From Sphingobacteriales bacterium (lineage in GTDB: Bacteria; Bacteroidota; Bacteroidia; Chitinophagales; Chitinophagaceae): a stretch of DNA of 64,000 nucleotides. Under the pieces are notes generated by a model. It saw only the letters and a list, made by a program, of their open reading frames with translations, did not search any database and was not told the DNA's origin. A program made the position numbers and the translations under genes. Shown here piece after piece: positions 1,368-58,802 of the stretch (position 1 is the stretch's first letter; each line of letters opens with the position of its first letter). Where the stretch lies: positions 1,790-65,789 of the forward strand of contig JACPOD010000026.1 of assembly GCA_016185185.1 (NCBI GenBank), given 5' to 3'.

Positions 1368-1416
1368 TGAATTAGGGAATGAGAAATTAAGAATTAGAAA
1401 TAAGGAATAAGAAAGC
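1368..1416. repeat. heptad-phased word array (7 units, GAAATTA/GGAATAA words)
   Basis: Sequence reads tgaatta gggaatg agaaatt aagaatt agaaata aggaata agaaagc. It uses the same word family as the arms at 41025-41114. Confidence 0.75.
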
Positions 1417-1452
1417 GTACAATTTTTTCAACAAGTAAAAATGAAATGGTAA

Positions 1453-1947
1453 TTATTTCAGTGCTTCCAGTAAGTTTTTGATGGTAGTGCCACCGTCCCA
1501 GCCTTTTACTAATTCTCCTTTCTTATTATAAACAGCAACAAAAGGTATATAATGCGCCTGGAAATAAGTGCCAAAGAAATAGAGGTCATCTTTTCCCATT
1601 TTAATGGAGGAATAATTTTCTATATGGTACTGTTCATAAAACTCTTTGATTTTATTCATAGGCAAAGGGGAGATCATTATGAATTGGGTTTTCTTAAAGT
1701 CTCCAATCTGACCGGTAAGTGTTTCTGTGAATTTCTTACAATGCTCACAATCCGGACTGAAATAAACAATAACAGTGGCAGTTTTTTTCTTCAGGTCACT
1801 TTTATAAAAAAGAGAACTGTCGGTCATCATCATTTTAAAAAAAGGGATCTTTTTGTCCATCAGGTACGGTGTCTTGCTGCTGTCAGCATCCTGGCTATGT
1901 GCCAGGGAATTCAGGAACAGGAAAAAAACGGTAACGGCATATTTCAT
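1453..1947 (-). CDS. thioredoxin-fold thiol-disulfide oxidoreductase (TlpA-like), exported
   Basis: N-terminal signal peptide, SPDCEHCKKF CxxC motif, size about 160 aa. Confidence 0.6.
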   Translation of the reverse strand: MKYAVTVFFLFLNSLAHSQDADSSKTPYLMDKKIPFFKMMMTDSSLFYKSDLKKKTATVIVYFSPDCEHCKKFTETLTGQIGDFKKTQFIMISPLPMNKIKEFYEQYHIENYSSIKMGKDDLYFFGTYFQAHYIPFVAVYNKKGELVKGWDGGTTIKNLLEALK

Positions 1948-2029
1948 CCCTCAAATCTAAACTTTATCAATGTTTTTTTGCTGTTAAAAAAAGGGGATCA
2001 AACAGTTTCAGCGGTAGGGCGAAGAACCG

Positions 2030-2037
2030 TATCTTTG
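2030..2037 (+). promoter_or_regulatory. -7 box TAtcTTTG upstream of efp
   Basis: tatctttg lies 65 nt upstream of the efp ATG. Confidence 0.4.
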
Positions 2038-2101
2038 CGGCCTTAATAAATTTAAAAAAACAGGCTATCAGCCAACCGCTAATAGCTAAAAGCATTTTCA
2101 A

Positions 2102-2665
2102 ATGGCAAATACTTCAGACATCAGCCGGGGAATGATCATTAAACTTGATGGCAGTTTATACTCCGTAGTGGAGTTTGGCGAAAACAAAACGGCCCGTGCC
2201 GCCGCTAAAGTGTGGGCTAAACTAAAAGGCGTGGATAATAACCGTTCCATTGAAAAAACATGGAACAGCGGTGATAATATTTACCCCGTTCGTGTGGAAA
2301 GAAAGAGTTACCAGTATTTGTATAAAGATGATACCGGTTACAATTTTATGGATACCGAAACTTTTGAACAATTGGCCGTAAACGAAAATATGGTGGATGC
2401 CCCGCAGTTTTTAAAAGACGGACAGGAAGTAAGTATGCTCATCAATACAGAAACAGAATTACCCATGAGTGTGGAACTGCCTGATAAAATTGTTTTGCAG
2501 GTTACCTATAGTGAGCCCGGAGTAAAAGGAGATACGGCTACCCGTACTTTAAAAGCCGCCACTGTAGAAACAGGAGCTACCGTAATGGTTCCTTTGTTTG
2601 TAAATGAAGGGGAGATGATTCGGGTGAATACCAAGAGCGGGGAATATGTGGAGAGGGTGAAGTAA
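2102..2665 (+). CDS. efp: translation elongation factor P
   Basis: 187 aa with the typical EF-P N-terminus MANTSDISRGMIIKLDGSLYSVVEF. The efp-accB-accC order is a common synteny. Confidence 0.95.
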   Translation: MANTSDISRGMIIKLDGSLYSVVEFGENKTARAAAKVWAKLKGVDNNRSIEKTWNSGDNIYPVRVERKSYQYLYKDDTGYNFMDTETFEQLAVNENMVDAPQFLKDGQEVSMLINTETELPMSVELPDKIVLQVTYSEPGVKGDTATRTLKAATVETGATVMVPLFVNEGEMIRVNTKSGEYVERVK

Positions 2666-2686
2666 AATTATTCTACTTTATAGATA

Positions 2687-2718
2687 AGCCCAAAATCAAC
2701 TGATTTTGGGCTATTTTA
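2687..2718 (+). terminator. rho-independent terminator after efp
   Basis: 12-bp stem agcccaaaatca / tgattttgggct with a 2-nt loop, followed by attttat. Confidence 0.75.
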
Positions 2719-2826: not shown

Positions 2827-3300
2827 ATGGATTTTAAACAAATTCAGGAGTTGATCAAAATGGTCAACAAGTCCAACTTAAGTGAGGTAACGATTGAAGA
2901 AAAAGGGTTCCGTTTAACGATCAAGCAAAAAGAAGATAATGTAACACAGGTAATGGCTGCGGCTCCTGTATATGCACCTGCTCCGGCGCCTGCCGCCGCC
3001 CCGGCTGCAGCAGCTGCAACTCCAGCACCCGCTCCAAAAGCGGAAGCAAAAACTGATAATTTAATTACTATTAAGAGCCCGATGATCGGTACTTTCTACC
3101 GTCGTCCTTCACCCGATAAACCCATATTTACAGAAGTAGGTGATGAGGTTACTCCGGGTAAGGTAGTTTGCATTATTGAAGCTATGAAGCTCTTTAATGA
3201 AATTGAAAGCGAAGTAAAAGGTAAGATCGTAAAAGTGCTGGTAGAAGATCAGTCACCGGTAGAATATGATCAGCCTTTATTTTTAGTAGATCCCAGTTAA
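2827..3300 (+). CDS. accB: acetyl-CoA carboxylase biotin carboxyl carrier protein
   Basis: Ala/Pro-rich linker and the biotinylation motif EAMKLFNEIE. Confidence 0.93.
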   Translation: MDFKQIQELIKMVNKSNLSEVTIEEKGFRLTIKQKEDNVTQVMAAAPVYAPAPAPAAAPAAAAATPAPAPKAEAKTDNLITIKSPMIGTFYRRPSPDKPIFTEVGDEVTPGKVVCIIEAMKLFNEIESEVKGKIVKVLVEDQSPVEYDQPLFLVDPS

Positions 3301-3311
3301 TTTGGCAATTT

Positions 3312-3400
3312 GAAAATATGCTGCTTTGAAAATGAATAAACAATTTCAATATCAGCAGCGTTTAATTTTCAAATTTCCAAATCATCAAATCATCAAATCG
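3312..3400. repeat. imperfect inverted repeat plus 8-bp tandem words in the accB-accC spacer
   Basis: gaaaatatgctgct (3312-3325) pairs imperfectly with agcagcgtttaattttc (3354-3370). Tandem caaatcat caaatcat caaatcg follows at 3378-3400. Confidence 0.6.
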
Positions 3401-3405
3401 AATTC

Positions 3406-4743
3406 ATGTTTAAAAAAATATTAATTGCCAACAGGGGAGAAATTGCATTACGGGTAATACGTACCTGTCGTGAAATGGGTATTAAAACCGTAGCGGTTTA
3501 TTCCACTGCTGATAAAGAAAGCCTCCATATAAAATTTGCAGATGAAGCAGTTTGTATTGGTAAACCTGCCGGTGCAGATTCTTATCTCAACATACCGCAC
3601 ATCATGGCAGCTGCTGAAATTACCAATGCCGATGCCATTCATCCAGGGTATGGTTTCCTGGCAGAAAATGCAAGGTTCTCACAAATATGTGCAGAGCATG
3701 GTATTAAATTTATAGGGCCCACGCCGGAGATGATTAATGCTATGGGTGATAAAATAACGGCTAAGGAAACCATGATAAAAGCAGGCGTTCCTGTTGTGCC
3801 GGGTGGTGGTGGTTTATTGCAGAGTGTGGAAGAAGCAAAAGTGTTAGCAAAAGAAATTGGCTATCCTGTAATATTAAAAGCAACGGCCGGTGGTGGTGGT
3901 AAAGGTATGCGCCTGGTATGGGAAGAAAGTGAAGTAGAAAAAGCATACAGTACCGCTAAAGCAGAAGCTGCTGCATCTTTTAAAAACGATGGTATCTATA
4001 TGGAAAAATTTGTGGAAGAACCACGCCATATTGAGATACAGGTTGCCGGTGACCGTTATGGAAAAGTTTGTCACTTAAGTGAAAGAGACTGTTCCATTCA
4101 GCGTCGTCACCAAAAACTGGTGGAAGAATCACCCTCTCCTTTTATGACTGCTGAGTTAAGGGAACGTATGGGCGAAGCAGCAATTAAAGCAGCCAGCGCC
4201 ATTAATTATGAAAGTGTGGGAACCATTGAGTTCCTTGTTGATAAGCACCGTAACTTCTATTTCATGGAAATGAATACGAGGATACAGGTGGAACATTGCG
4301 TTACAGAAGAAGTAACCAATTTCGATCTGATTAAAGAGCAAATAAAAATTGCGATGGGTGAACCCATCAGCGGTCAAAATTATATACCGGAAGGACATGC
4401 GATCGAATGCCGCATCAATGCAGAAGATCCTTACAATGATTTCCGTCCTTCACCGGGCAGAATTAATGTATTGCATCAGCCGGGTGGCCATGGTATCCGT
4501 ATTGACTCGCATGTGTATGCTGGGTATGTTATCCCTCCTTACTACGATTCAATGATCGCCAAGATCATTGCTGTGGCAAGAACCAGGGAAGAAGCCATTA
4601 ATACCATGAGCCGTGCACTGGCAGAATATGTGATAGAGGGTGTGAAGACAACCATTCCTTTTCACCAGCAACTGATGAAAGATGAAAATTTCCGCAAAGG
4701 AAACTTTACCACTAAGTTTTTGGAATCCTTCCAGTTAAAATAA
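3406..4743 (+). CDS. accC: acetyl-CoA carboxylase biotin carboxylase subunit
   Basis: 445 aa with [24 protein letters not shown] and [10 protein letters not shown] motifs. Confidence 0.96.
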
Positions 4744-8304: not shown

Positions 8305-9402
8305 ATGACTGAGCAAAAAATACTGGAAGCGCTGAGCAATGTACAGGAGCCCGACCTTGGCAAAGACCTTGTTACGCTAAACATGGTAAAGGATATTGTA
8401 ATTGATGGTAACAATGTTTCTTTTACCGTTGTGTTAACAACACCGGCTTGCCCCTTAAAAGATATGATCCGTAATGCCTGTATCAACGCCGTAAAATTGT
8501 TAGTGAAAAAAGAAGCTGATGTTACGGTAAATTTTACTGCTAATACCAGCAGCAACCGTAAAGATGCTGCTACTATTTTGCCTAAAGTAAAAAATATTAT
8601 TGCGGTGGTGAGTGGTAAAGGTGGTGTAGGTAAATCAACTGTAAGTGCAAACCTTGCATTAGCATTAGCGCAGGGTGGCGCAAAAGTTGGTTTGATGGAC
8701 GCTGATATTTACGGACCAAGTGTTCCGATTATGTTTGGCATCCGTGGCCAAAGACCGGTGATGATGGAGATTGAAGGAAAAGGGATGATTGTGCCGATTG
8801 AAAAGTTTGGAATAAAACTGATGAGTATCGGTTCATTGGTTGATGATAAGAACGCAGTAGTATGGCGTGGTCCGATGGCAAGCAGTGCCATCCGCCAGTT
8901 CGTTACGGAAGTATTGTGGGAAGAACTGGATTATTTAATTATTGATATGCCACCGGGTACTGGTGATATTCATTTAACATTAGTGCAAACAGTTCCCGTT
9001 ACAGGGGCAATCATTGTTACTACTCCGCAGGATGTTGCTTTGGCTGATGCAAAGAGAGCAGTTGCTATGTTTGGACAGGCACAAATAAAAGTTCCAATCA
9101 TTGGTTTAGTGGAGAACATGAGTTATTTTATTCCGGCAGAGTTACCCGATAATAAATATTACATCTTTGGTAAAGATGGGGGCAGGCGTTTGGCAGAAGA
9201 ATATGATATTGCCTTCCTGGGGCAAATTCCATTGGTACAAAGCATAAGGGAGGGTGGTGATAGTGGATTGCCCATAATGATGAGTGAAGATAAAATTACC
9301 CGTAAAGCATTTGAAGATTTTGCCGGATTAGCTGCACGGAGTATTGCCATGCGGAATGCACAATACCCATCAACAAAGCCGTTGGAAGTTTTTAGTTCTT
9401 AG
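8305..9402 (+). CDS. apbC: Mrp/NBP35-family Fe-S cluster carrier ATPase
   Basis: N-terminal DUF59-like region followed by the deviant Walker A GKGGVGKST. Its stop codon lies inside the first heptamer units of the array at 9393. Confidence 0.92.
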   Translation: MTEQKILEALSNVQEPDLGKDLVTLNMVKDIVIDGNNVSFTVVLTTPACPLKDMIRNACINAVKLLVKKEADVTVNFTANTSSNRKDAATILPKVKNIIAVVSGKGGVGKSTVSANLALALAQGGAKVGLMDADIYGPSVPIMFGIRGQRPVMMEIEGKGMIVPIEKFGIKLMSIGSLVDDKNAVVWRGPMASSAIRQFVTEVLWEELDYLIIDMPPGTGDIHLTLVQTVPVTGAIIVTTPQDVALADAKRAVAMFGQAQIKVPIIGLVENMSYFIPAELPDNKYYIFGKDGGRRLAEEYDIAFLGQIPLVQSIREGGDSGLPIMMSEDKITRKAFEDFAGLAARSIAMRNAQYPSTKPLEVFSS

Positions 9403-9455
9403 TTTTAAATTCTTAGTTCTTAGTTCTTAGTTCTTAGTTCTGGGTTCTTGGTTCT
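9393..9455 (+). repeat. heptad-phased array, 9 units of TAGTTCT-type words (left arm)
   Basis: Sequence reads tagttct tagtttt aaattct tagttct tagttct tagttct tagttct gggttct tggttct. Confidence 0.9.
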
Positions 9456-9887
9456 GTTTTTTTGTTGCTTATCTGTCTTTAAACTTTGCACCTTTAAATT
9501 CCGCTTGTTTAAATAGTTTATTAAACCTATCAGCATCTTTTGTATTTCTTCTGCAATTGAGTAGAGGCTGTTTAGTTTTTCTTCCGGAATATAATGCCGG
9601 TCAAATATTCTGTACAGCTGTGATTGCGATTCGCAAACAGAACCATGAGCTATTTCAAGAAACTGAATGAATTCTTTATTCCCCCCTCTGCCAAAACCTT
9701 CAGCAATATTGTCCATAACTGAACCACTGGAATTATTAATTTGATCTCTTAATTTAAAATCTGTTTTAAGGCTTGTTTCTGTACAAATAACAAATATTTT
9801 CTTACAAAAAAATCTTGCTTTTTGCCAAACTTCAACGTCTTCAAATTTTTTAAAAGTAGCCAAATGAAAACGTTTAATTATACTCAA
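9420..9887 (-). CDS. four helix bundle protein (23S rRNA intervening-sequence protein family)
   Basis: FEDVEVWQKARFF...NIAEGFGRGGNKEFIQFLEIAHGSVCESQSQL matches the TIGR02436/PF05635 pattern. It has a TTG start, and its C-terminal tail is encoded by the left repeat arm. Confidence 0.8.
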   Translation of the reverse strand: MSIIKRFHLATFKKFEDVEVWQKARFFCKKIFVICTETSLKTDFKLRDQINNSSGSVMDNIAEGFGRGGNKEFIQFLEIAHGSVCESQSQLYRIFDRHYIPEEKLNSLYSIAEEIQKMLIGLINYLNKRNLKVQSLKTDKQQKNRTKNPELRTKN

Positions 9888-9893
9888 ACAATA

Positions 9894-9935
9894 AAACTTA
9901 GAACTTAAAACCCAGAACTAAGAACTAAAAACTCA
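9894..9935 (-). repeat. heptad-phased array, 6 units of AGAACTA-type words (right arm, inverted relative to 9393-9455)
   Basis: Sequence reads aaactta gaactta aaaccca gaactaa gaactaa aaactca, the reverse-complement word set of the left arm. Confidence 0.9.
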
Positions 9936-9941
9936 AAACAT

Positions 9942-15880: not shown

Positions 15881-15925
15881 GCTACAAGCAAAACAACCAC
15901 AAACTACAAACCACAAACCATAAAC
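15881..15925. repeat. heptad-phased array (ACAAACC-type words)
   Basis: Sequence reads gctacaa gcaaaac aaccaca aactaca aaccaca aaccata, abutting the stop of the 15926 gene. Confidence 0.75.
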
Positions 15926-19269: not shown

Positions 19270-19417
19270 GAAAGTCCGGAAGTCGGGAAGACCGAAAGTC
19301 CGGAAGAAAACCCTGTTTATATTAATATGATAAGCTTTCTTTGCTGCTTACATTCTTTCCTTAAACTCTTTCCTTAATTCTTTCTTTCGGACTTCCCGAC
19401 TTTTCCGACTTTCGGAC
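19270..19417. repeat. paired inverted heptamer arrays (AAGTCCG words) around a 77-bp core, no gene inside
   Basis: Left arm gaaagtccggaagtcgggaagaccgaaagtccggaag (19270-19306). Right arm ctttcggacttcccgacttttccgactttcggac (19384-19417). The core itself contains CTTTCCT-type heptamers. Confidence 0.85.
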
Positions 19418-41024: not shown

Positions 41025-41114
41025 GGATAATAAGGAATAAAGAATTAAAAATGAGAAAGTAATAATCACCCTTTCTTATTCCCTATTTCAATTTCTGATT
41101 TCTTATTTCTCATT
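41025..41114. repeat. paired inverted heptamer arrays (GGAATAA/GAAATTA words) with 11-bp spacer
   Basis: Left arm ggataataaggaataaagaattaaaaatgagaaag. Right arm ctttcttattccctatttcaatttctgatttcttatttctcatt. The reverse complement of the right arm closely resembles 1368-1416. Confidence 0.85.
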
Positions 41115-41127
41115 GTACTTTCGCCCC

Positions 41128-41925
41128 ATGTATTCCAAAGGTCAGTTAGCTGCTAAATATTTTTCCTACTATCTTAAAGCTTCTAATGGAAAAGGCCATG
41201 GAACACATTCTCCCTATGTGTACGATTTTATTGAACAGGTACTCAATGATGACCGTGATTTTTACGCCTATAGTGAAATTGAAAACCTGCGCAAAACATT
41301 ATTAAAAGAGGAACGTACGATTGAGGTACAGGATTTTGGTGCCGGCTCAGCACTAATCAATACAAAACAAAGGAAAGTGGCAGATATAGCCCGGTATTCT
41401 TTGAAACCTAAAAAGTATGCACAATTATTATTCCGGATGGTGAATTATTACCAGCCCAAACATATCCTGGAAATAGGAACTTCTTTAGGTATCACTACCT
41501 GTTACCTCGCAAAGCCCGGCAACAATACCAAAGTAACTACAATGGAAGGGGCAGATTCAATTGCTGCAATCGCACAAGAAAATTTTAAAAAACTTGCATT
41601 AAAGAATATAGAATTAGTGCAAGGCAACTTTAATGAAACACTGTCATCTGTCATCCGTCAACTGTCAACTTTGGATTTCATTTTCATTGATGGCAACCAC
41701 CGCAAGGAACCAACCTTACGTTATTTCGAACAGCTGTTACCCTTAACACATAACGACACCATTTTAATATTTGATGATATTCACTGGAGTGAAGAAATGG
41801 AAGCTGCGTGGAAACAAATAAAAAAGCATGAGCAGGTAAGAACAACTATAGATTTATTTTTTATTGGAATTGTGTTGCTGAGAAAAGAGTTTAAGGAGAA
41901 ACAACATTTTACGATAAGATTTTAA
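41128..41925 (+). CDS. class I SAM-dependent O-methyltransferase-like protein
   Basis: ILEIGTSLGITT is motif I. FIFIDGNHRKEPT and IFDDIHWS follow. The start is at ATG 41128. Confidence 0.7.
   Translation: MYSKGQLAAKYFSYYLKASNGKGHGTHSPYVYDFIEQVLNDDRDFYAYSEIENLRKTLLKEERTIEVQDFGAGSALINTKQRKVADIARYSLKPKKYAQLLFRMVNYYQPKHILEIGTSLGITTCYLAKPGNNTKVTTMEGADSIAAIAQENFKKLALKNIELVQGNFNETLSSVIRQLSTLDFIFIDGNHRKEPTLRYFEQLLPLTHNDTILIFDDIHWSEEMEAAWKQIKKHEQVRTTIDLFFIGIVLLRKEFKEKQHFTIRF
41641..41668 (+). repeat. 4 x 7-bp array (CTGTCAT/CTGTCAA) inside the methyltransferase coding sequence
   Basis: Sequence reads ctgtcat ctgtcat ccgtcaa ctgtcaa, translated in-frame as LSSVIRQLS. Confidence 0.8.
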
Positions 41926-44888: not shown

Positions 44889-45686
44889 TTGCTCACGATT
44901 AAATTTAATATTCATGAAGTTGATTCTTGGTTTATTGGTTTCCTTATTTATATCGTTCAGGAAAAAGAAGGGTTGATGAAAGTGGGCAAATATTTTGGCA
45001 TTAGTGCAGAGGATTTGAAGAAATTAAATGGATTGAAAGCTGATGCAGTAAATATGGGTGATAAACTGGTGATTGGTTATTTGAAAGTGCTGAAGGAACA
45101 ATCTCCATTAGCAGCTAATGCAAAAGCGGGTAAGCCGGTGGTGAAGACGCAAGGGGCAAATGACAAGGCACAAGAAGTTGCTAAAACGGAAGTAAAGAAA
45201 GAAGATAAACCAATAGTTAAACAACCAGAAGTTAAGCCCGAAGAAAAACCAGTGGTAAAAGCTCCTGAAGTGAAGAAAGAAGAGAAGCCTGTTGTAAAAC
45301 AGGAAATACCAAAAGTAGAAGAAAAGAAACCTGTGGTGAGTAGTACAGTAAACAGCTCTGCATCGAAAGAAGGGGTGTTTATGAATGAATATTTTTCACA
45401 AACGAATAATGGAAGTAATACCCAATCATCTGAAACGATGTGCGGCGTATTTAAAAGCAGCAGCGGCTGGAACAATGGAAAATATTATGCCCTGATGAAT
45501 GGCGTAGAAAGAGGAACCATTGTAAAGATTATGGTGAATGGCCGGGCCGTTTATGCAAAAGTTTTAGATGCTGTACCCAATGTAAAGGAGAATGCAGGGT
45601 TGAATGTACTCATCAGTAATGCAGCTGCGGCACAGTTAGCCGTAAGTGAGCAGAAGTTTAATGTGGGAGTGATGTGGAGTAAGTAA
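44889..45686 (+). CDS. LysM domain + Lys/Pro/Glu-rich linker + RlpA-like double-psi beta-barrel protein
   Basis: LysM-like YIVQEKEGLMKVGKYFGISAEDLKKLNGL, followed by KPVVK/EEK repeats. The C-terminus GTIVKIMVNGRAVYAKVLD is RlpA-like. The 5' end is unclear (see finding). Confidence 0.55.
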   Translation: MLTIKFNIHEVDSWFIGFLIYIVQEKEGLMKVGKYFGISAEDLKKLNGLKADAVNMGDKLVIGYLKVLKEQSPLAANAKAGKPVVKTQGANDKAQEVAKTEVKKEDKPIVKQPEVKPEEKPVVKAPEVKKEEKPVVKQEIPKVEEKKPVVSSTVNSSASKEGVFMNEYFSQTNNGSNTQSSETMCGVFKSSSGWNNGKYYALMNGVERGTIVKIMVNGRAVYAKVLDAVPNVKENAGLNVLISNAAAAQLAVSEQKFNVGVMWSK

Positions 45687-45719
45687 ATGAAAAATGAAAA
45701 GTGAATAATGAGAAATGGG
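45685..45719. repeat. heptad-phased array (AATGAAA/AGTGAAT words)
   Basis: Sequence reads aaatgaa aaatgaa aagtgaa taatgag aaatggg, starting within the stop codon of the LysM gene. Confidence 0.75.
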
Positions 45720-45745
45720 ATGCAGTAGTTGTATCCCATTTTTAT
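45714..45745 (+). terminator. rho-independent terminator after the LysM/RlpA-like gene
   Basis: Stem aatgggat / atcccatt with an 11-nt loop, followed by ttttatt. Confidence 0.6.
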
Positions 45746-46659
45746 TGAAAACGATAGCCTCTTAAAAAATCTTCTACATTCATTTTCTTTTTTCCTTCCA
45801 GCTGAAGTTCGATTACATGTACATAACCATCGGCACAGGCGAATTTTAGAAATGTTTTGTTATCGGTTTCAAATTCACCGGTATTGCTTTTAGATGATGT
45901 GATTTCTTTTTTACTCCGGTATATCTTCAGCATCTTTCCCTGCCCGACTTCGTCATTCAGGCGGGCATCTAAATAAGTAAACGCTCCGGGAAAAGGAGAG
46001 AGGCCTCGGATGAGGTTATGTACTTCAGTTGTTGTTTTGGTAAAATCTATTTTGCAGGTGTCGGTGAAAATTTTGGGGGCATGTTTGAGTGAATGGTGAA
46101 TAGTGAATGGTGAATTGCCATCTTCTTTTTCCATTGACCATTGACCATTGACCATTGACAACTGGGGAACTTCATTAAGAGACCTATCCGCTAACCCTTC
46201 CACTGTTTTTACTAACAACGCTGCTCCAATTTCTTTCATTTTATCATGCACTTCACCGGCGGTTTCATTTTCATCTATGTTGATAGGAGCGGCGCCACGG
46301 TATTGTGGTAATAAACTACCATGTAAGTTAACTGTTCCCATTGGCGGCATATTCCAAACAACTTCGGGTAACATGCGGAAGGCAACCACAATTTGTAAAT
46401 CGGCATTGAGTGCTTTTAGTTGTTCCAGGAATTCAGCATTCTTTAATTTTTCCGGTTGCAGGATGTTTAAGTTATGTTCAACAGCATATTTCTTTACAGC
46501 ACTTTCATTGAGCTTCATTCCACGTCCGGCAGGTTTATCGGGTGCAGTGATTACACCCACAATATTACATCCAGCTTTTACCAATGCATCCAGAGAAGCT
46601 ACGGCAAAATCCGGTGTGCCCATAAAAACAATTCGCAGCGATTGAAAATCTTTCATCAT
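45742..46659 (-). CDS. fmt: methionyl-tRNA formyltransferase, atypical (internal gap plus repeat insertion)
   Basis: RIVFMGTPDFAV and NLHGSLLPQYRGAAPI motifs, with C-terminal domain LSPFPGAF...LQLEGKKKM. The segment expected after RGAAPI seems missing, and element 46088-46159 is inserted. Confidence 0.8.
   Translation of the reverse strand: MMKDFQSLRIVFMGTPDFAVASLDALVKAGCNIVGVITAPDKPAGRGMKLNESAVKKYAVEHNLNILQPEKLKNAEFLEQLKALNADLQIVVAFRMLPEVVWNMPPMGTVNLHGSLLPQYRGAAPINIDENETAGEVHDKMKEIGAALLVKTVEGLADRSLNEVPQLSMVNGQWSMEKEDGNSPFTIHHSLKHAPKIFTDTCKIDFTKTTTEVHNLIRGLSPFPGAFTYLDARLNDEVGQGKMLKIYRSKKEITSSKSNTGEFETDNKTFLKFACADGYVHVIELQLEGKKKMNVEDFLRGYRFQ
46088..46159 (-). repeat. composite element: 4 x GTCAATG + 16-nt spacer + 4 x ATTCAC(C/T) (as read on the minus strand), in-frame in fmt
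   Basis: The plus strand reads agtgaat ggtgaat agtgaat ggtgaat tgccatcttcttttt c cattgac x4. Confidence 0.9.
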
Positions 46660-46704
46660 CGCTGCGAAGGTAAGAGAAGCAATTATACTTCTCAATAGTT
46701 CGCA

Positions 46705-49551: not shown

Positions 49552-50808
49552 ATGTTTATACAGGTAAATGAAAACCAGCTGGCCGAACGTTTTATGCGGT
49601 ATGTAAAAGTGGATACACAAAGTGATCCGCTGAGTAATACGTATCCCACTACCGAAAAGCAAAAGGATCTTTCCCGCATCCTCGTGCAGGAATTACAGGG
49701 CATGGGTATAAGCGATGCACACCTGGATGAACATGGCTATGTGTATGCTACGATACCATCCAACAGCAGTAAAAAAAATATTCCGGTTATCTGTTATTGT
49801 GCCCATGTGGATACAGCGCCTGACTGCAGTGGCACGGATGTTAAACCCATCCTACATAAAAATTATGATGGTGCAGCTATTGTGTTGCCCGATGATAATT
49901 TACAGGTATTAACATTGGAAGCTTATCCTTATTTGAAAAATCATATAGGAGCTGATATCATTACTGCCAGTGGAAAAACATTACTCGGCAGTGATGATAA
50001 AGCCGGTGTGGCAGAGATCATGGAGTTTGCCTATTATGTAATGACGCATCCTGAAATTAATCATGGTGAAATAAAATTATTGTTTACACCGGATGAAGAA
50101 GTGGGCAAAGGGACAGCGAATGTGGATCTGAAAAAGTTAGGAGCACAATATGGTTATACATTGGATGGTGGTGAAGCCGGTGATCTGGAAGACGAAACCT
50201 TTAGTGCAGATGCAGCACATATTATTGTAAATGGTGTTATCTCACATCCCGGTTATGCCAAAGGGAAGATGGTGAATGCTTTGAAAATCGCCGGTGAAAT
50301 TTTAGCAGCGTTACCGAAGAATGAATTTAGTCCGGAGACTACGGAAAAACGGGAAGGTTTTGTGCACCCAACAAGAGTGGATGGTATAGCAGAAAAAGCA
50401 ACCATTGAATTTATAGTTCGTGATTTTGATACAGCGAGGTTAGCCCAACATCAAGCAAGACTAAAATCCATTGCAGAAAAAGTATTGAGTAATTATCCCA
50501 ACTGCAATATGGAGTTCCATGTACAGGAACAATACCGCAACATGAAAGAAATACTGGATCAAAACCCTCATGTAGTAACTAATGCTGAAGAAGCTATTAA
50601 ACGGGCAGGTTTATCGGTAAGAAAAGAAGCCATCCGTGGCGGTACCGATGGCAGCCGCTTAAGTTTTATGGGGTTGCCTTGCCCCAATCTTTTTGCAGGT
50701 GAACAAGCGATTCACTCCAAATTAGAATGGATAGGTGTAAAGGACATGGTTAAAGCTGTGGAAACACTTTTGCATCTTTCAATGATTTGGGAAGAGAAGA
50801 GTGAATAG
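49552..50808 (+). CDS. pepT: peptidase T (tripeptide aminopeptidase, M20B)
   Basis: RFMRYVKVDTQSD, CAHVDTAPD, LGSDDKAG and FTPDEEVG motifs. Its stop codon lies inside the repeat arm. Confidence 0.92.
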   Translation: MFIQVNENQLAERFMRYVKVDTQSDPLSNTYPTTEKQKDLSRILVQELQGMGISDAHLDEHGYVYATIPSNSSKKNIPVICYCAHVDTAPDCSGTDVKPILHKNYDGAAIVLPDDNLQVLTLEAYPYLKNHIGADIITASGKTLLGSDDKAGVAEIMEFAYYVMTHPEINHGEIKLLFTPDEEVGKGTANVDLKKLGAQYGYTLDGGEAGDLEDETFSADAAHIIVNGVISHPGYAKGKMVNALKIAGEILAALPKNEFSPETTEKREGFVHPTRVDGIAEKATIEFIVRDFDTARLAQHQARLKSIAEKVLSNYPNCNMEFHVQEQYRNMKEILDQNPHVVTNAEEAIKRAGLSVRKEAIRGGTDGSRLSFMGLPCPNLFAGEQAIHSKLEWIGVKDMVKAVETLLHLSMIWEEKSE

Positions 50809-50873
50809 TGAAAAATGAAAAATGAATAATCGGGTCTTTATATTTTTCACTTTGCTCTTTTCATTTTTCATTT
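50800..50873. repeat. paired inverted heptamer arrays (AGTGAAT/AATGAAA words) between convergent genes
   Basis: Left arm agtgaat agtgaaa aatgaaa aatgaat aat. Right arm atttttcactttgctcttttcatttttcattt. The stop codons of both flanking genes fall in or at the arms. Confidence 0.85.
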
Positions 50874-51219
50874 AAATCTCTTCTTTCCAAATGCGCATAT
50901 ACCAGTAAATGGGGAAGCCTATGCCACCGGTAAAAATAAATACCAGTACCCATATTACTCTTTCACCACCCTGCACCAGTTTATTATTGATCATATGTAC
51001 GATAAAATAAATAAGTGCTGCCAGTTTTAGTACAGCAGTAATAATGGCCACTATAACAAGGGGCCACATAGTATTCCATACGGTAAAAAAATCTGGCTCC
51101 GTATGATCCCAGTAAGCAAACTGCGGTATCATGGTCAGCACCATGATGATGATAACAAAGGCAGAAAGGATGGGCAGGAAACTAAATATCCCTGACAGTA
51201 TTTTTGAATTGCGGCTCAT
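50872..51219 (-). CDS. small membrane protein with PLD-nuclease-N-terminal-like (PLDc_N) motif
   Basis: 115 aa, 3 TM helices, C-terminal GGIGFPIYWYM. Confidence 0.5.
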   Translation of the reverse strand: MSRNSKILSGIFSFLPILSAFVIIIMVLTMIPQFAYWDHTEPDFFTVWNTMWPLVIVAIITAVLKLAALIYFIVHMINNKLVQGGERVIWVLVFIFTGGIGFPIYWYMRIWKEEI

Positions 51220-53292: not shown

Positions 53293-53524
53293 CACAGGGA
53301 TTCCTTACCAATTCAACATTCAAAATTCATCATTCAGCATTCAAAATAATCCACCCCGCAGGGGATTCCTCATTCATTCAAAATTCATCATTCAGCATTC
53401 AAAATAATCCACCCCGCAGGGGATTCCTCATTCATTCAAAATTCATCATTCAGCATTCAAAATAATCCACCCCGCAGGGGATTCCTCATTCATTCAAAAT
53501 TTATAATTCAAAATTTAAAATAAT
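53293..53524 (+). repeat. tandem array, 4 units of 58 bp (two central units identical)
   Basis: The unit is ccaccccgcaggggattcctcattcattcaaaattcatcattcagcattcaaaataat, with copies at 53351 and 53409 (identical) and diverged copies at 53293 and 53467. Each unit is a GC mini-hairpin plus ATTCANN heptamers. Confidence 0.92.
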
Positions 53525-53525
53525 A

Positions 53526-53546
53526 AAGCGGCTTTGCCGCTTTTTG
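53526..53546 (+). terminator. rho-independent terminator downstream of SOD gene and repeat array
   Basis: Stem agcggc / gccgct with loop ttt, followed by ttttt. Confidence 0.7.
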
Positions 53547-54369: not shown

Positions 54370-54441
54370 TGAGTCGTGAATCGTGAGGCGTGAGTGGCAG
54401 GAGGCAAATAATTTATAATTTAAAATTCAGCATTTAAAATT
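54370..54441 (+). repeat. composite element in the exbB-exbD spacer: 4 x TGANNCG + spacer + 5 x TAAAATT-type heptamers
   Basis: Sequence reads tgagtcg tgaatcg tgaggcg tgagtgg (54370-54397), then aataatt tataatt taaaatt cagcatt taaaatt (54407-54441). Confidence 0.85.
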
Positions 54442-54445
54442 TCCA

Positions 54446-56883: not shown

Positions 56884-56976
56884 GATTATTGGTTATAGAA
56901 GCTAAAGTTACCTATTTCCCTCCACGGACCAGCTATATATGATGCATGCGTCATACCCTGCGGGGAAAGGAGAGGA

Positions 56977-57279
56977 CTAGATACACAGTTCAACTTTTAT
57001 GTTGTGGCCAACTTCAATGATTTCTTTTTTTCTGATAGCTGCTTTCAGCGGAAGTAAATAGGTGTTCAATTTCGTGTCGAACCAGATGGCTGTTTTCCAT
57101 TCACTCTTTCCAATTTTTGCTAATGCCTTTAATCGCCCCCAACCTTCTTCTTCAGATCGGAGGGCCGCTCTTATTTCTTTTGACAATGCTTTGGGAAGTG
57201 AAACAAAATACCCGCCGTTAGGTCCGGTATATTGCCAGGGTTTGCCGGTAAATGCATATTTTATTTTTCCACCTTTCAT
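56977..57279 (-). CDS. DUF1905 domain protein
   Basis: 100 aa with WQYTGPNGGYFVSLP, WGRLKA and WKTAIW patterns. Confidence 0.65.
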   Translation of the reverse strand: MKGGKIKYAFTGKPWQYTGPNGGYFVSLPKALSKEIRAALRSEEEGWGRLKALAKIGKSEWKTAIWFDTKLNTYLLPLKAAIRKKEIIEVGHNIKVELCI

Positions 57280-57344
57280 TCAAAACAATTTAGTGCAGTA
57301 GGATTTTTTTCTGTTCAGTATCCTTACAAACCAGCATTCAGTAT

Positions 57345-57677
57345 TTATTTCTTGCGATTGAATATTTTGCTGAGCAGGAAATAAAGCACCAATGCCATCA
57401 CTGTCCAGTACAAAGTAAATATTATTGGCAAAAGAGGTGGAGGAGGATCAGGGTCCTGGCCTAAAACCGTAAGGGGACCAATCAAAATAAACTTAACAGG
57501 ATATATAATGTGGGCCAGTATGTTTTTCCAGGCCACAGGAGATCCCATTCCCGGGAACCACTCACCATGTACAGGCCAGCACTGTACTTTAGGACCTAAA
57601 AGCGAATTAGTGATAAATTGAAACGCAAACGCTGAAACAAGAAAGATGATAACAAACTTTTTTTTGGAGACCTGCAT
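57345..57677 (-). CDS. small membrane protein, unknown function
   Basis: ORF 57345..57746. The start is taken at the internal ATG 57677 to avoid overlapping prmC. It has 3 hydrophobic segments. Confidence 0.35.
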   Translation of the reverse strand: MQVSKKKFVIIFLVSAFAFQFITNSLLGPKVQCWPVHGEWFPGMGSPVAWKNILAHIIYPVKFILIGPLTVLGQDPDPPPPLLPIIFTLYWTVMALVLYFLLSKIFNRKK

Positions 57678-57738
57678 ACTGCTGCGTTTGTAATTGTGTA
57701 AAATATATAGTACTTCAAATAAAAAACGAATACTGATT

Positions 57739-58674
57739 TTATACAACTGCTTTCACCATCCGGTCTTTTCCCTGCATATCTTTCTTTACTTCTATACTGG
57801 TAAATCCTTTTGCTGTAAATAAAGCTATCATATCATTACCCAATGCTTCATTAATTTCCAAAAACATCATTCCAACCGGTTTTAAATGCGTTAAGGCAAA
57901 ATCAGCTATCTGTTTATAAAAGATCAATGCATCATCATCGGGTACAAAAAGTGCTAAGGATGGTTCAAAGTCTAAAACGCCTTTACGCATGGCTGCGGCT
58001 TCACTTCTTTTTACATAAGGTGGGTTACTTACAATAATATCAAACTGGCCTAATTCATTCCATTTAGTTCTGTCTAAAAAGTCAAGCAACTTGAAATCTA
58101 TCTCTGTTTCATTACTCATGGCATTTTGAACGGCTATACTTAATGCTTCACTGCAAACATCAATAGCCGTTACTTTAGCAGCAGGTAACTTCTTTTTCAA
58201 CGCAATGGGTATGCAGCCGCTGCCTGTTCCAATGTCAATTATTTTGAATTTTGAATTTTGAATGTTGAATAAATCGTTGGTAGTCGGCTGTTGTTCATTG
58301 GCCGGAGGATTATCAGGTTTTAATTTTTCATTTTTCATTTTCCACTTTTCACTTTCAATTATCCACTCCACCAGCTCTTCTGTTTCCGGTCTTGGTATCA
58401 GTACTTTTTCATTTACATAAAATTTCATTCCGGCAAACCAGGCTTCACCCAATACATATTGTACAGGCCGGTGGGCTAATAATTCTTTTGTGTATTTTTC
58501 TAACTGCCCCTGCTTTTGTGGAGATAAAGGAAATTCTTTGTTTACGATGCGGTCAATTCGTTTCCATTCTGTAATATGCTCCATCACCCAGTCGGCAATA
58601 TTATGCGCCTCTCTGTCATCATAAATCTCAAACAGCTGAAACAATAACTGCTGGTATGCCCGGTGAATGGTCAT
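57739..58674 (-). CDS. prmC: peptide chain release factor N5-glutamine methyltransferase, with in-frame repeat insertion
   Basis: LIPRPETEELVEW, DIGTGSGCIPIAL and SNPPY motifs. At 311 aa it is about 30 aa longer than I recall for PrmC, and the extra residues map to 58241-58358. Confidence 0.88.
   Translation of the reverse strand: MTIHRAYQQLLFQLFEIYDDREAHNIADWVMEHITEWKRIDRIVNKEFPLSPQKQGQLEKYTKELLAHRPVQYVLGEAWFAGMKFYVNEKVLIPRPETEELVEWIIESEKWKMKNEKLKPDNPPANEQQPTTNDLFNIQNSKFKIIDIGTGSGCIPIALKKKLPAAKVTAIDVCSEALSIAVQNAMSNETEIDFKLLDFLDRTKWNELGQFDIIVSNPPYVKRSEAAAMRKGVLDFEPSLALFVPDDDALIFYKQIADFALTHLKPVGMMFLEINEALGNDMIALFTAKGFTSIEVKKDMQGKDRMVKAVV
58241..58358 (-). repeat. composite element in-frame in prmC: 5 x GAAAA(G/A)T-type + 55-bp spacer + 4 x ATTCAAA (as read on the coding strand)
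   Basis: The plus strand reads attttga attttga attttga atgttga (58241-58268), then tttttca tttttca ttttcca cttttca ctttcaa (58324-58358). Confidence 0.85.
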
Positions 58675-58686
58675 GGGGCAAAAATA

Positions 58687-58802
58687 CTGGTTTCTGGTTG
58701 GGGTTGGTTACTGGTTCCTTGTTCTTATAACCAGCAACCAGTAACTTGTAACCAGCAACCAGTAACTTGTAACCAGCAACCAGTAACTTGTAACCAGCAA
58801 CC
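58687..58802. repeat. heptamer arrays in inverted orientation; right arm is a 21-bp tandem repeat (3.5 copies)
   Basis: Left arm ctggttt ctggttg gggttgg ttactgg ttccttg ttcttat. Right arm (aaccagc aaccagt aacttgt) x3 + aaccagcaacc, at 58729-58802. Confidence 0.9.

Follow-up and report, generated by a model that had tools for sequence, protein, structure and literature searches.

Heptanucleotide tandem arrays and their association with PF05635 intervening-sequence genes in Chitinophagaceae

Short tandem arrays built from 7-bp units recur along the 64-kb stretch of Chitinophagaceae DNA analysed here (the window), raising the question of what kind of element they represent and how they came to occupy both spacers and the interior of genes. 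Arrays were listed with Tandem Repeats Finder (TRF) and, independently, by a lag-p scan with shuffle and Markov controls. At a score of at least 9 the scan detects 21 period-7 arrays in the window against 0.35 expected from second-order Markov simulations, and one to three arrays for each of periods 5, 6, 8, 9 and 10; at a score of at least 12 it detects nine, against 0.03 in dinucleotide-preserving shuffles (30 shuffles), with none or one for each of periods 2-6, 8-13 and 15, and seven for period 14, the second harmonic of 7. A sequence-only reading had proposed that the arrays are a non-random, heptad-phased class with degenerate units, present in spacers and inside genes; this description stands in each respect, other periods not being enriched. 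Its suggested comparison of the lag-7 signal with shuffled controls gives a strong excess in the window, and the same bias is seen in 80 Chitinophagaceae genomes (1.36 Mb), with 90 period-7 arrays versus 0-7 for periods 5, 6 and 8-11. TRF places period-7 arrays at 1376-1414, 9387-9455, 9893-9939, 15895-15925, 41072-41114, 41640-41670, 42112-42138, 42149-42176, 42765-42795, 45685-45717, 46089-46115, 46131-46159, 50809-50873, 53311-53524, 54370-54395, 54410-54442, 58241-58270, 58318-58367 and 58724-58802. Of the 18 loci to which 7-bp units had been assigned, 16 coincide with one of these arrays or lie only a few bases away; at the other two the unit length did not hold, 19272-19306 having period 8 and 20736-20799 irregular units of 7-9 bp.

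The gene that explains the architecture was overlooked in that reading: a PF05635 ORF lies between two AGTTCTT arrays, forming the only complete cassette of the window (9387-9939), in the order array, PF05635 gene, inverted array. The ORF (9420-9887, minus strand) matches Pfam PF05635 (E=6.9e-34) and NCBIfam TIGR02436 (E=4.6e-32), the class of 23S rRNA intervening-sequence, four-helix-bundle, S23p or Avd-like proteins. Relatives in the PDB (2GSC, 2RLD) have five chains of one sequence per entry, and the Xanthomonas protein is described as a homopentameric torus (Lin 2006, as quoted in PMC4990558). The downstream arm (9387-9455, minus strand; TRF period 7, 9.9 copies), which is (AGTTCTT)n on the plus strand and (AAGAACT)n when read along the gene, overlaps the stop of an apbC-like ORF (8305-9402, plus strand) and also provides the PF05635 ORF with its C-terminal tail and stop. 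The upstream arm (9893-9939, minus strand; TRF period 7, 6.7 copies) consists of AGTTTTG/AGTTCTT in gene sense and is of the GTT-core type described below. Together the arms (9387-9455 and 9886-9939) constitute an inverted repeat of 45-53 nt that is 75-82% complementary. L163 has the gene at this site, and L161 and L162 lack it. AGTTCTT is found nowhere else in the window, which counts against the reading favoured below.

Bracketing of PF05635 genes by such arrays, which is new here, is found in metagenomic loci and in Xanthomonas. Inverted same-word arrays of period 7-9 bracket 37 of 58 metagenomic PF05635 genes (64%), compared with 1 of 142 other genes in those loci (0.7%) and 7 of 1186 genes in Chitinophagaceae loci, counts that are not phylogenetically independent because the metagenomic loci belong to one sequence-related subfamily and include some near-duplicates. 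The arms carry a polar core, kept at periods 7, 8 and 9: 42 of the 60 upstream arms have sense-strand GTT and 44 of the 64 downstream arms have AAC, and only 51 of 222 generic arrays contain either core. Among arrays located 0.3-2.3 kb from a PF05635 gene, 45% have the arm word of that gene, where the null gives 10% (0 of 500 permutations as high). A Xanthomonas PF05635 gene between accB and accC is flanked by (GGGAATC)n and an inverted array, and this flanking word is also that of the genome-wide arrays (~185 heptamer arrays per genome; Rehm 2015). Arms change copy number in whole units, close cassettes differing by unit-step indels of 7 nt, 48 nt (6x8) and 54 nt (6x9). Arm words usually differ between empty and occupied sites, so that direct derivation of one from the other is shown at only one site. 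In the RsmF-centred relatives 222 arrays were detected in 1.43 Mb as against about ten PF05635 genes; most arrays therefore do not adjoin the gene, a further point against the favoured reading.

A gene-less hairpin at 41025-41114 (plus strand), composed of (AATAAGG-type)n, an 11-nt loop and (TTCTTAT-type)n, lies directly upstream of a SAM-methyltransferase gene. In five relatives (L005, L010, L013, L053 and L066) arrays with the words of this hairpin bracket a PF05635 gene and are followed by more such arrays, the methyltransferase ortholog lying ~0.6 kb downstream. In L005 a DHFR gene separates the PF05635 gene from the ortholog, which is directly preceded by a further array of the same word, as in the window. 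The window hairpin corresponds in both position and word to the PF05635 cassette arms of these five relatives.

The arrangement of an array, a spacer and a second, often inverted array was likewise confirmed in the window, and most arrays of this lineage are inverted pairs predicted to fold as hairpins, which is also new here. Five of the seven window pairs folded as RNA have z-scores of -2.9 to -6.6, the other two being weaker (-1.4 and -1.9). Between convergent genes, the hairpin at 50796-50873, (AGTGAAT/AATGAAA)n, loop, (TTTTCAY)n (-27.5 kcal/mol, z -4.2), contains the stop of an M20 peptidase ORF and touches that of ORF 50872-51219 (minus strand). Between the divergent prmC and ribD, the hairpin at 58687-58802 (-39.7 kcal/mol, z -2.9) consists of (CTGGTTN)n, a loop and (AACCAGC AACCAGT AACTTGT)3.8, with TRF periods of 7 and 21. 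A TRF-detected period-8 inverted pair (19272-19418) has the arms (AAGTCCGG)4.4 (19272-19306) and (CTTTCCGA)4.2 (19384-19418), 78 nt apart (-51.7 kcal/mol, z -6.6), and the accB-accC spacer (3300-3399, plus strand) holds a hairpin of period-8 inverted arrays (-29.6 kcal/mol, z -5.6), followed by (CAAATCAT)2.8. Some arrays are single, which counts against the favoured reading. Spacer arrays include (GGAATAA/GAAATTA)5 between a thioredoxin-like gene and mdh (1376-1414), (AACCACA)4.4 abutting the stop of a YCII-domain gene (15895-15925), and a higher-order repeat 3' of sodA (53311-53524, plus strand) in which a 58-bp unit, made up of four ATTCANN heptamers and a small GC hairpin, is present 3.6 times. 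The exbB-exbD spacer (54370-54442, plus strand) is filled by (TGAGTCG)3.7, which begins one base past the exbB stop, and (AATTTAA)4.7, which ends 4 nt before the exbD start; these arrays (54370 and 54408) are not complementary to each other, again counting against the favoured reading.

Arrays had been said to begin at or within stop codons (apbC, pepT, acyl-CoA dehydrogenase and LysM genes), which proved correct when ORF ends were checked, and exbB can be added: ORFs end inside or directly before arrays at 9402 (apbC-like), 50808 (M20 peptidase), 20762 (acyl-CoA dehydrogenase, whose stop is spanned by GGTTTAA-type units of 7-9 bp at 20736-20799, plus strand), 45686 (LysM) and 54369 (exbB). 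At the LysM gene (AAATGAA)4.7 runs from the stop and is followed by a GC hairpin (45685-45717, plus strand), and L001 and L002 have a related word at this site. The sense strand of each of these words carries TAA, TAG or TGA, and since 7 is coprime to 3, three units of such a word place a stop in every frame. Stop-containing words terminate any ORF entering the arrays, and stop-free or stop-broken variants persist in frame, in rsmF, fmt, prmC and the methyltransferase gene, the degenerate unit positions coinciding with stop avoidance.

The in-frame arrays are located only in variable linkers. In rsmF, (GTCAATG)4 - AAAAGATGGC - (ATTCACT)4 (42112-42176, plus strand) encodes residues 56-77 (QSMVNGQSSIKDGIHYSLFTIHS) and folds at -14.7 kcal/mol (z -5.0) with one mismatch per 7 nt. 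Most of ~60 Chitinophagaceae genomes have 7-nt periodicity in this linker, built from a wide range of words, and four of seven tested linkers from other genomes have z-scores of -2.6 to -6.1, including hairpins of different words. That of L003 is predicted to form a 20-bp perfect stem inside the mRNA, which should be harmful if cut and so counts against the favoured reading. In the window the rsmF hairpin is repeated in fmt (46088-46159, minus strand), in frame in the interdomain linker (residues 180-203, QLSMVNGQWSMEKEDGNSPFTIHHSL) and with a loop sharing AAGATGGCA, whereas L001 and L002 have hairpin arrays of other words exactly at the fmt site; a single hairpin, loop included, in both genes is evidence of intragenomic copying. 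Two further arrays arose at constant length: (CTGTCAN)4.4 in the methyltransferase gene (41640-41670, plus strand; residues 177-187), where CTGTCAN of the window and CCATCGT of L001 and L002 indicate concerted change, nearly every unit differing at the same two positions, and (ACTGTCA)4.4 in rsmF (42765-42795, plus strand; residues 273-283), a site occupied by (AAAGTTG)n in other genomes, the length in each case being that of the orthologs. Finally, prmC has two in-frame arrays between its PrmC_N and methyltransferase domains (58241-58367, minus strand; residues 135-145, LFNIQNSKFKI, and 103-119, EWIIESEKWKMKNEKLK), with one TGA-bearing unit broken to TTA; these arrays (58241 and 58318) are not mutually complementary, a point against the favoured reading. 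The likening of the coding arrays to in-frame Rickettsia palindromic elements is fair as regards architecture, both being hairpin-forming elements translated in frame where a housekeeping protein tolerates them.

Comparison of orthologous loci shows array sites kept, words differing, and presence or absence of the PF05635 gene among close relatives at three sites. Within an array the units are homogenised to a common word; between species that word turns over, yet the locus is retained, as often is the complementarity of the arms. The word families do not form one sequence family, the 222 arrays comprising 113 distinct canonical words, and word sharing within a genome (11.7%) exceeds that between genomes (7.3%; 1 of 2000 permutations as high). 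Nor can it be maintained that no repeat class with 7-bp phasing has been described, as published work describes heptanucleotide tandem repeats in cyanobacteria, Xanthomonas, Beggiatoaceae and some Bacteroidetes. According to the summaries in PMC4679880 and PMC4692102, Mrazek (2007) found that heptanucleotide repeats are the most frequent long SSR of many genomes, and period 7 dominates in unrelated phyla; PMC4692102 also cites a report of such repeats in Calothrix. Beggiatoaceae, Cyanobacteria and five Bacteroidetes carry TAACTGA repeats, ORF interiors included. Already reported for the GGGAATC arrays of Xanthomonas (Rehm 2015) are a usual count of about four units, 70-75 inverted pairs in each genome, and conserved positions at which sequence and length are variable.

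On balance, the arrays, which are heptanucleotide tandem repeats and mostly in inverted pairs, are probably the arms and orphaned arms of intervening-sequence-type cassettes, changing by unit-step slippage and homogenisation. The complete element would be that of 9387-9939, and gene-less hairpins and single arrays would be arms without the gene. ORF-bearing 23S rRNA intervening sequences have the same design as the window cassette. In Coxiella, three GACAGAT heptamers (two or three copies by strain) precede the S23p ORF and sit in the inverted-repeat stem, which RNase III cleaves where the first repeat begins, and the S23p protein is probably not made (PMC4990558), the last point counting against the favoured reading. 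By analogy with the intervening sequences of Coxiella, Leptospira and Salmonella, the two arms may pair in RNA as a long imperfect stem that would be cut by RNase III, allowing the element to be tolerated at low cost in transcribed spacers and operon junctions. New copies may arise by short-patch templated copying between arrays and not through a classical transposase, with the PF05635 protein as the element's own trans-acting partner. PF05635 is not known to have catalytic or mobilising activity, which weighs against this proposal.

Alternatively, the arrays could be neutral by-products of replication slippage in lineages whose replication or repair machinery favours 7-nt slips (Mrazek's polymerase-footprint idea), accumulating wherever selection is weak, as in spacers and protein linkers, with no function and no relation to PF05635. 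The period of 7 in cassette arms would then reflect nothing more than a general drift of unconstrained DNA. Whole-unit indels, the large word diversity, a nine-fold higher array density in intergenic than in coding DNA, the confinement of coding arrays to variable linkers and the literature summaries of period-7 dominance in unrelated phyla all agree with this. We nevertheless consider it unlikely, since it does not account for the 64% versus 0.7% bracketing, the polar arm core, the sharing of one genome-wide word by the Xanthomonas arrays and PF05635 flanks, or the retention of arm complementarity as words are replaced; moreover, the intergenic lag-7 signal disappears once discrete arrays are masked, and slippage alone is insufficient where two coding segments (41640-41670 and 42765-42795) became periodic without change in length. 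The coding arrays might also be ordinary protein sequence, that is, 7-residue peptide repeats under amino-acid selection with the DNA periodicity secondary. A 7-nt repeat always encodes a 7-residue peptide repeat and some peptides (LKVESIKLKVE) look structured, but the heptamer word at one orthologous site (rsmF, fmt, methyltransferase) differs between genomes and yields unrelated peptides, the period is 7 nt and not merely 21 nt, non-coding spacers contain the same words, and degenerate positions coincide with stop avoidance, which makes this highly improbable and bears out the earlier view that the arrays are not ordinary protein sequence.

RAYT genes lie between inverted REPs, and REPINs without a gene are numerous; a comparable layout could mean that the arrays are MITE-, REPIN- or RPE-type mobile elements moved by a dedicated enzyme from elsewhere in the genome, PF05635 being cargo or a lander that prefers hairpins. 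The recurrence of one hairpin and loop in two unrelated genes 4 kb apart, the gene's variable presence at three sites and the within-genome sharing of words would fit. Such an origin is rather improbable given that the compared sites allow no conserved terminal sequence or target-site duplication to be defined, that words differ between elements of a single genome, and that a motif scan of ORFs of at least 200 aa found no reverse-transcriptase motif (the transposase search being a Pfam scan of genes adjoining arrays); array positions conserved across species with changing words, as also reported by Rehm (2015), point instead to in-place evolution rather than repeated insertion. The arrays might instead be iteron-like sites bound by a DNA- or RNA-binding regulator, acting on translation initiation or termination and not as element arms; MacGregor proposed binding sites of this kind for TAACTGA repeats that lie shortly before start codons. 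This idea draws on the arrays that end a few bases before start codons (41091-41114, methyltransferase gene; 54410-54442, exbD), the conserved core and variable spacing of PF05635 arms, and the match of pentameric homologues to arrays of typically 4-5 units, but is distinctly doubtful with some ten unrelated words within 64 kb, arrays in ORF interiors and between convergent genes, array orientation not fixed with respect to genes, and no regulator identified. For the reading of the arrays as arms of intervening-sequence-type cassettes, the link to PF05635 gives an unexplained class of heptamer repeats a testable origin.

Tandem Repeats Finder assigned a period of 7 to nearly all of the loci listed as heptamer arrays in the sequence-only reading, confirming that the arrays are real; the exceptions are 19272-19306, which has a period of 8 and an inverted partner at 19384-19418, and 20736-20799, where units of 7-9 bp are mixed. 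The expected lag-7 enrichment over shuffled controls was likewise recovered. In our own lag-p scan, a strict score detected nine period-7 arrays in the window against 0.03 expected from dinucleotide-preserving shuffles; other periods from 2 to 15 gave 0 or 1 array each, except period 14, a harmonic of 7. A looser score gave 21 period-7 arrays against 0.35 in Markov simulations, and 0-3 arrays at other periods. The units are degenerate, and arrays have a median length of ∼30 nt, corresponding to ∼4 units (median ∼4.2).

The window was assigned to Chitinophagaceae (Bacteroidota) by a scan with the rsmF product, and the nearest genomes, L001 and L002, encode RsmF proteins 87-89% identical to that of the window and are syntenic with window 29-48 kb at a DNA identity of 75-83%. 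Across 80 Chitinophagaceae genomes (1.36 Mb), 90 strict period-7 arrays were found, against 0-7 at periods 5, 6, and 8-11, and the 222 arrays detected in relatives (∼1.4 Mb, all centred on one locus) comprise 113 distinct canonical words. Array density is nine-fold higher in intergenic DNA than in coding DNA (0.68/kb versus 0.077/kb); nonetheless, 95 of the 222 arrays lie within ORFs. When arrays are masked, intergenic lag-7 identity is 0.280, equal to that at adjacent lags, so that the arrays are discrete elements rather than a diffuse compositional property, and a general drift of unconstrained DNA toward period 7 does not suffice as an explanation. An Rfam search of the whole window at gathering thresholds returned no families, rRNA included. 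Short Logan contigs matching two window proteins exactly are 100% identical to the window over their overlaps, and one of them stops just short of an array.

Heptamer repeats have a longer history, STRR heptamers of Calothrix/Anabaena having reportedly been described by Mazel in 1990. The suggestion that no described repeat class shows 7-bp phasing was mistaken, since such arrays have been published (PMC4679880, PMC4692102) and have been known in cyanobacteria since 1990 (first report as cited in PMC4692102). Among long simple sequence repeats (SSRs) of 5-11 bp, heptanucleotides are the most abundant in most repeat-rich genomes (Mrazek 2007, as cited in PMC4679880). Xanthomonas genomes each carry ∼185 GGGAATC arrays, mostly of four units and including 70-75 inverted pairs, without a link to known mobile elements; 83% of array positions are common to two species, length and sequence differing, and GGGGAYT arrays occur in Nostoc (Rehm 2015, PMC4692102). 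In the window, at least three head-to-tail units occur at many loci, there is an excess of period 7, and the arrays are mainly intergenic. The resemblance to the Xanthomonas and Nostoc repeats extends to the ∼4 units per array, the lack of an IS link, the frequent inverted pairs on opposite strands, and intergenic positions that are kept as length and sequence change. Those genomes, however, use one or a few G-rich words each, whereas the window has about ten AT-rich words in 64 kb, for most of which the G-quadruplex reading offered for Xanthomonas and Nostoc is impossible. In-frame arrays in housekeeping proteins and a link to PF05635 genes, both seen here, are unreported for the Xanthomonas and Nostoc repeats. 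TAACTGA arrays in marine Beggiatoaceae, Cyanobacteria, and five Bacteroidetes (MacGregor 2015, PMC4679880) similarly have 2-6 heptamer units and 7-nt indel steps between strains; in one direction they carry stops in all three frames, at which ORFs end, and in the reverse direction they are translated at protein peripheries. They differ from the window arrays in using a single word, mostly as direct repeats just 5′ of start codons (with one indirect repeat), and in lacking both a hairpin architecture and an associated gene. Because the window shares the properties of published heptamer arrays, the class-level finding is a new lineage of a known kind.

Most of the window arrays come in inverted pairs and fold into hairpins, bearing out the architecture of array, spacer, and inverted array. 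Such hairpins lie at 41025-41114 (z -1.4), 42112-42176 (z -5.0), 46088-46159 (z -1.9), 50796-50873 (z -4.2), and 58687-58802 (z -2.9), and period-8 examples at 3300-3398 (z -5.6) and 19272-19418 (z -6.6). The words found at gene ends, AGTTCTT, AGTGAAT, GGTTTAA, AAATGAA, and TGAGTCG, each contain a sense-strand stop triplet and, because 7 and 3 are coprime, an ORF entering a stop-bearing array terminates within three units, which is why arrays seem to begin at stop codons. Words within genes are stop-free (GTCAATG, ATTCACT, ACTGTCA, TCAAAAT) or else have the offending unit broken, as in prmC, where an ATGAAAA unit has become ATTAAAA. ATTCACC has GGTGAAT as its exact complement; the latter contains TGA, and this explains the periodic G-to-C mismatch of the rsmF and fmt hairpins.

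The arrays do tolerate coding contexts: the rsmF hairpin is translated as amino acids 56-77, within a variable loop, the fmt hairpin is placed in the interdomain linker, and two arrays occupy the region of prmC that joins the N-terminal domain to the methyltransferase domain. Since the rsmF and fmt elements are palindromic, in frame, and hairpin-forming, the likening of the arrays to Rickettsia palindromic elements (RPE) holds for part of their architecture. RPE, reportedly described by Ogata in 2000, are likewise translated in frame in housekeeping genes as an extra surface segment, but they form conserved families of 100-150 bp restricted to Rickettsia and lack 7-bp phasing, whereas the window elements span 65-115 bp and have unrelated words. 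Furthermore, RPE are true insertions, whereas two of the window coding arrays substitute sequence at unchanged length.

Hairpins unrelated to the heptamers are translated in this lineage too, as indicated by a 27-bp palindromic in-frame insertion in fmt (45941-45967, TGCCCG ... CGGGCA), which is not found in L001 or L002, and by an unrelated 72-bp hairpin insertion in L002 fmt ∼50 bp from the corresponding site. The window fmt gene (45742-46695, minus strand) also lacks 99 bp (33 codons, in frame) relative to L001 and L002, at 46269-46287 with the junction at 46278/46279. The missing segment encodes WAxINGEKxTGVTTFKLKHEIDTGDILLQ, and the Pfam Formyl_trans_N match in the window ends at profile position 122 of 181. 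In E. coli Fmt, this region contains the catalytic Asp loop.

Comparison of orthologous sites shows how the arrays change. Between near-identical cassettes, each an array, a PF05635 gene, and an inverted array, array indels measure 7, 48 (6 × 8), and 54 (6 × 9) nt, i.e., whole units; for the window's own strain, the matching contigs were all identical. At orthologous sites the word can be replaced entirely and the hairpin kept. The fmt linker has AGTGAAT/CCATTGA in the window, GACGACT/GTCTGTG in L001, and TGAATGC in L002; most of ∼60 genomes have a 7-periodic rsmF linker, built from many different words, and the linkers tested that fold significantly represent three word-distinct types. In the methyltransferase array, the difference between the window and L001/L002 falls on two positions of the unit and recurs in nearly every unit, a concerted change. 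With different words at the same orthologous sites in fmt, rsmF, and the methyltransferase gene, protein-level selection on the coding arrays is excluded. Words are also shared within a genome: the words and loop (AAGATGGCA) of the window fmt hairpin are common to the window rsmF hairpin 4 kb away and not to the fmt hairpins of L001 and L002, and among arrays more than 700 bp apart word sharing is 11.7% within genomes versus 7.3% between them, a value reached by one of 2000 permutations. Two coding segments, one in the methyltransferase gene (41640-41670) and one in rsmF (42765-42795), have become 7-periodic with their length unchanged relative to dozens of orthologs, which looks like templated overwriting and for which slippage alone is insufficient.

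Other repeats in the window were noted. At 53311-53546, a 58-bp unit consisting of four ATTCANN heptamers and a small hairpin AATCCaCCCCGCAGGGGATT is repeated 3.6 times at 96% identity, and a classic GC-stem/T-run terminator closes the run. A heptamer block seems to have been amplified recently together with its hairpin. The LysM-domain gene (44889-45686, plus strand) lacks, at ∼44951, an in-frame segment of 252 bp (84 codons) found in L001 and in L171, a same-species Logan contig otherwise 100% identical to the window. The segment comprises the end of the signal peptide and the first LysM-like segment, and its junction lies between the short direct repeats TTATTTAT and TTGTATTAT. Either a true deletion or a collapse in the assembly could explain the difference. 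In the same gene, a 39-bp repeat (45189-45301, 2.9 copies) encodes the KPVVK-rich linker of the LysM protein and is a conventional in-frame repeat with no relation to the heptamers.

Between two AGTTCTT arrays of the window lies an ORF (9420-9887, minus strand) encoding a 23S rRNA intervening-sequence (IVS) protein (PF05635, Pfam E = 6.9e-34; TIGR02436). The arms of this cassette, 9387-9462 and 9886-9939, are inverted repeats of 45-53 nt with 75-82% complementarity, able to form a stem, and the neighbors are an apbC-like gene and an amidohydrolase gene. Relatives of the protein in the PDB are 2GSC (Xanthomonas) and 2RLD, each entry containing five chains, and the Xanthomonas protein is a homopentameric torus (Lin 2006, as quoted in PMC4990558). 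L001 and L002 have a different PF05635 gene, surrounded by inverted GAC-type arrays, at a site occupied in the window by a simple spacer of 50 bp. A metagenome scan with three PF05635 proteins yielded 80 loci with G+C contents of 0.30-0.69. Inverted same-word arrays of period 7, 8, or 9 bracket 37 of the 58 metagenomic PF05635 genes with complete flanks, these loci being one related subfamily with near-duplicates included in the counts, as against one of 142 other genes in the same loci and seven of 1186 in Chitinophagaceae loci. A first PF05635 HMM, built from the metagenomic subfamily, overlooked divergent members, which were found as ORFs between inverted arrays.

The cassette arms are polar: 42 of the 60 upstream arms contain GTT and 44 of the 64 downstream arms contain AAC on the sense strand, and one or other triplet is present in only 23% of generic arrays. 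Arrays within 2.3 kb of a PF05635 cassette carry the cassette word in 45% of cases versus 10% expected. Xanthomonas has homologues with 84-88% identity to XCC0516, the protein that was crystallised. They are located between accB and accC, and the gene (L167-L170) is preceded by GGGAATC GGGAGTG GAGAATC GGGAATC and followed by an inverted array. The flanking word is thus that of the genome-wide arrays, in whose description a neighboring PF05635 gene is not mentioned (Rehm 2015, PMC4692102). The accB (2827-3300)-accC (3406-4743) spacer of the window contains a gene-less, period-8 inverted-array hairpin (3300-3399, -29.6 kcal/mol, z -5.6) at the junction occupied by the PF05635 cassette in Xanthomonas. 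In two loci of relatives (L009, 4503-5603; L005, 4687-5763), a dihydrofolate reductase (DHFR) gene adjoins the PF05635 gene and has same-word arrays at its own boundaries, so that a housekeeping gene, too, can be bracketed in this way. In the searchable literature, the only link found between PF05635, S23p, or four-helix-bundle genes and heptamer arrays was the Coxiella IVS, though the association may be noted in database family descriptions or in other papers. A "23S rRNA IVP" appears among CRISPR-array-linked proteins in a figure legend of a large CRISPR-discovery screen (PMC10910872), and short-period arrays beside PF05635 genes might perhaps be what the CRISPR array finder picked up.

The relationship between cassettes and gene-less hairpins can be followed among relatives. 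In L005, L010, L013, L053, and L066, AATAAGG and TTTCTTA/TTCCTTA arrays bracket a PF05635 gene and are followed by more such arrays, with the methyltransferase ortholog ∼0.6 kb downstream; in L005, DHFR comes after the PF05635 gene and an array of an AATAAGG-type word lies immediately before the methyltransferase ortholog. At 41025-41114 these words recur in the window with unchanged polarity, as a hairpin with an 11-nt loop immediately upstream of the methyltransferase gene; this hairpin is also present in L001, and L002 has arrays of other words there. Between the apbC-like and amidohydrolase genes, the PF05635 gene is present in the window and in L163, and L161 and L162 have only a 75-bp hairpin; its words differ, leaving direct derivation from the window cassette arms unsupported. 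At three sites, close relatives differ in whether they have the PF05635 gene, and an array hairpin tends to be retained. The gene-less hairpins are probably cassette arms; for one of them, homology to such arms in both position and word was seen. Another small bracketed cassette, of a different kind, may be present at 24237-24945, where a 36-nt inverted repeat (24237-24272 and 24910-24945, 89% complementary), each arm with its own CCCCCTGAAGGGGG hairpin and a short AAACCCCC × 2 repeat, brackets an ORF (24341-24853, 170 aa) without a Pfam match.

The cassette recalls the ORF-bearing IVS of 23S rRNA. In Coxiella burnetii, three GACAGAT heptamers (two or three copies by strain) precede the S23p ORF (Warrier 2016, PMC4990558). 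As in the window cassette, the ORF lies inside stem-forming inverted repeats; the GACAGAT repeats are within the stem, RNase III cleaves at the first of them, and the S23p protein is probably not made (PMC4990558). Leptospira has another ORF-bearing IVS (Ralph and McClelland 1993, as cited in PMC4990558), and IVS share with the cassettes a sporadic presence that suggests mobility. The Coxiella and Leptospira IVS, however, are located in helix 45 of 23S rRNA and excised by RNase III, whereas the window cassette lies between two protein genes and, being outside a 23S rRNA gene (helix 25 or 45), is called IVS-like rather than an IVS. The IVS literature examined describes neither gene-less hairpins nor in-frame copies. 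By analogy with the Coxiella IVS, the two cassette arms may pair in RNA, and the resulting stem would be a substrate for RNase III.

Two further systems invite comparison. REP/REPIN elements and their RAYT genes, reportedly described by Nunvar in 2010 and by Bertels and Rainey in 2011, likewise comprise many short intergenic palindromes, typically in inverted pairs and in genome-specific families, with a small gene between two inverted copies. The flanking geometry is that of the window cassette, but RAYT is an HUH Y1 transposase, whereas the PF05635 protein, a four-helix bundle, is not known to have a catalytic site, and REPs are not tandem arrays and are conserved in sequence within a family. 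Avd, an accessory protein of diversity-generating retroelements (DGRs), is a pentameric four-helix bundle of the same family as the window protein. DGR homing overwrites a target segment at constant length and requires a nearby hairpin. PF05635 is named in a DGR review (PMC10053308). DGRs consist of a reverse transcriptase, a template repeat, and a variable repeat, none of which adjoins the PF05635 genes here. A local DGR at the window cassette is rejected, given the apbC and amidohydrolase neighbors, the absence of a YxDD reverse-transcriptase motif from all window ORFs of at least 200 aa, and a PADLOC defence-system search of the PF05635 protein that gave no matches.

For heptamer repeats, the literature examined offers only a conjectured polymerase footprint, G-quadruplexes, or sites for a binding protein (PMC4679880, PMC4692102), and polymerase slippage has been proposed as their cause (Mrazek 2007, as cited in PMC4679880). 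Slippage accounts for the period, the unit-step indels, and the word diversity; taken alone it is unlikely, failing on the bracketing of PF05635 genes (64% versus 0.7%), the polar GTT/AAC core, the single genome-wide word that in Xanthomonas also flanks the PF05635 gene, the persistent complementarity of arms, and the length-neutral overwriting. Copying and gene presence/absence would fit a classical MITE or REPIN-type element, but comparison of occupied with empty sites yielded no common termini or definable target-site duplication, no candidate enzyme was found among the array-adjoining genes scanned with Pfam, and array positions are too conserved, making this quite improbable. That the arrays bind a regulator is very improbable: arrays abutting start codons fit such a role, whereas ten words in 64 kb and arrays inside ORFs are at odds with it.

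We tentatively raise the possibility, at low confidence, that the heptamer arrays of cyanobacteria, Xanthomonas, Beggiatoaceae, and Bacteroidota are not generic slippage products but the arms, and orphaned arms, of one widespread family of selfish PF05635 cassettes, seen also as ORF-bearing 23S rRNA IVS. The PF05635 protein might bind, process, or mobilise the arrays, or might merely travel along. Under the selfish-cassette reading it would be the cognate trans-acting partner of the arrays, by analogy with RAYT and REPINs, or perhaps a ring protein reading a repeated core such as GTT; arrays would be spread or rewritten by short-patch templated copying, which could overwrite coding segments at unchanged length. 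Judging by the searchable literature, two findings are new: short-period arrays are generally coupled to PF05635 cassettes, and arrays are present, translated and length-neutral, in conserved enzymes.

In many non-pathogenic bacteria, no long simple repeat is more frequent than the heptamers, and their origin and function have awaited an explanation for decades. A specific tie across phyla to one small gene family, with a stem known as an RNase III substrate in rRNA, would open the question to direct experiments. Across a bacterial family, the essential enzymes RsmF, Fmt, and PrmC carry translated repeat hairpins in their linkers, which matters for gene annotation, for protein alignments, and, because contigs break at arrays, for assembly.
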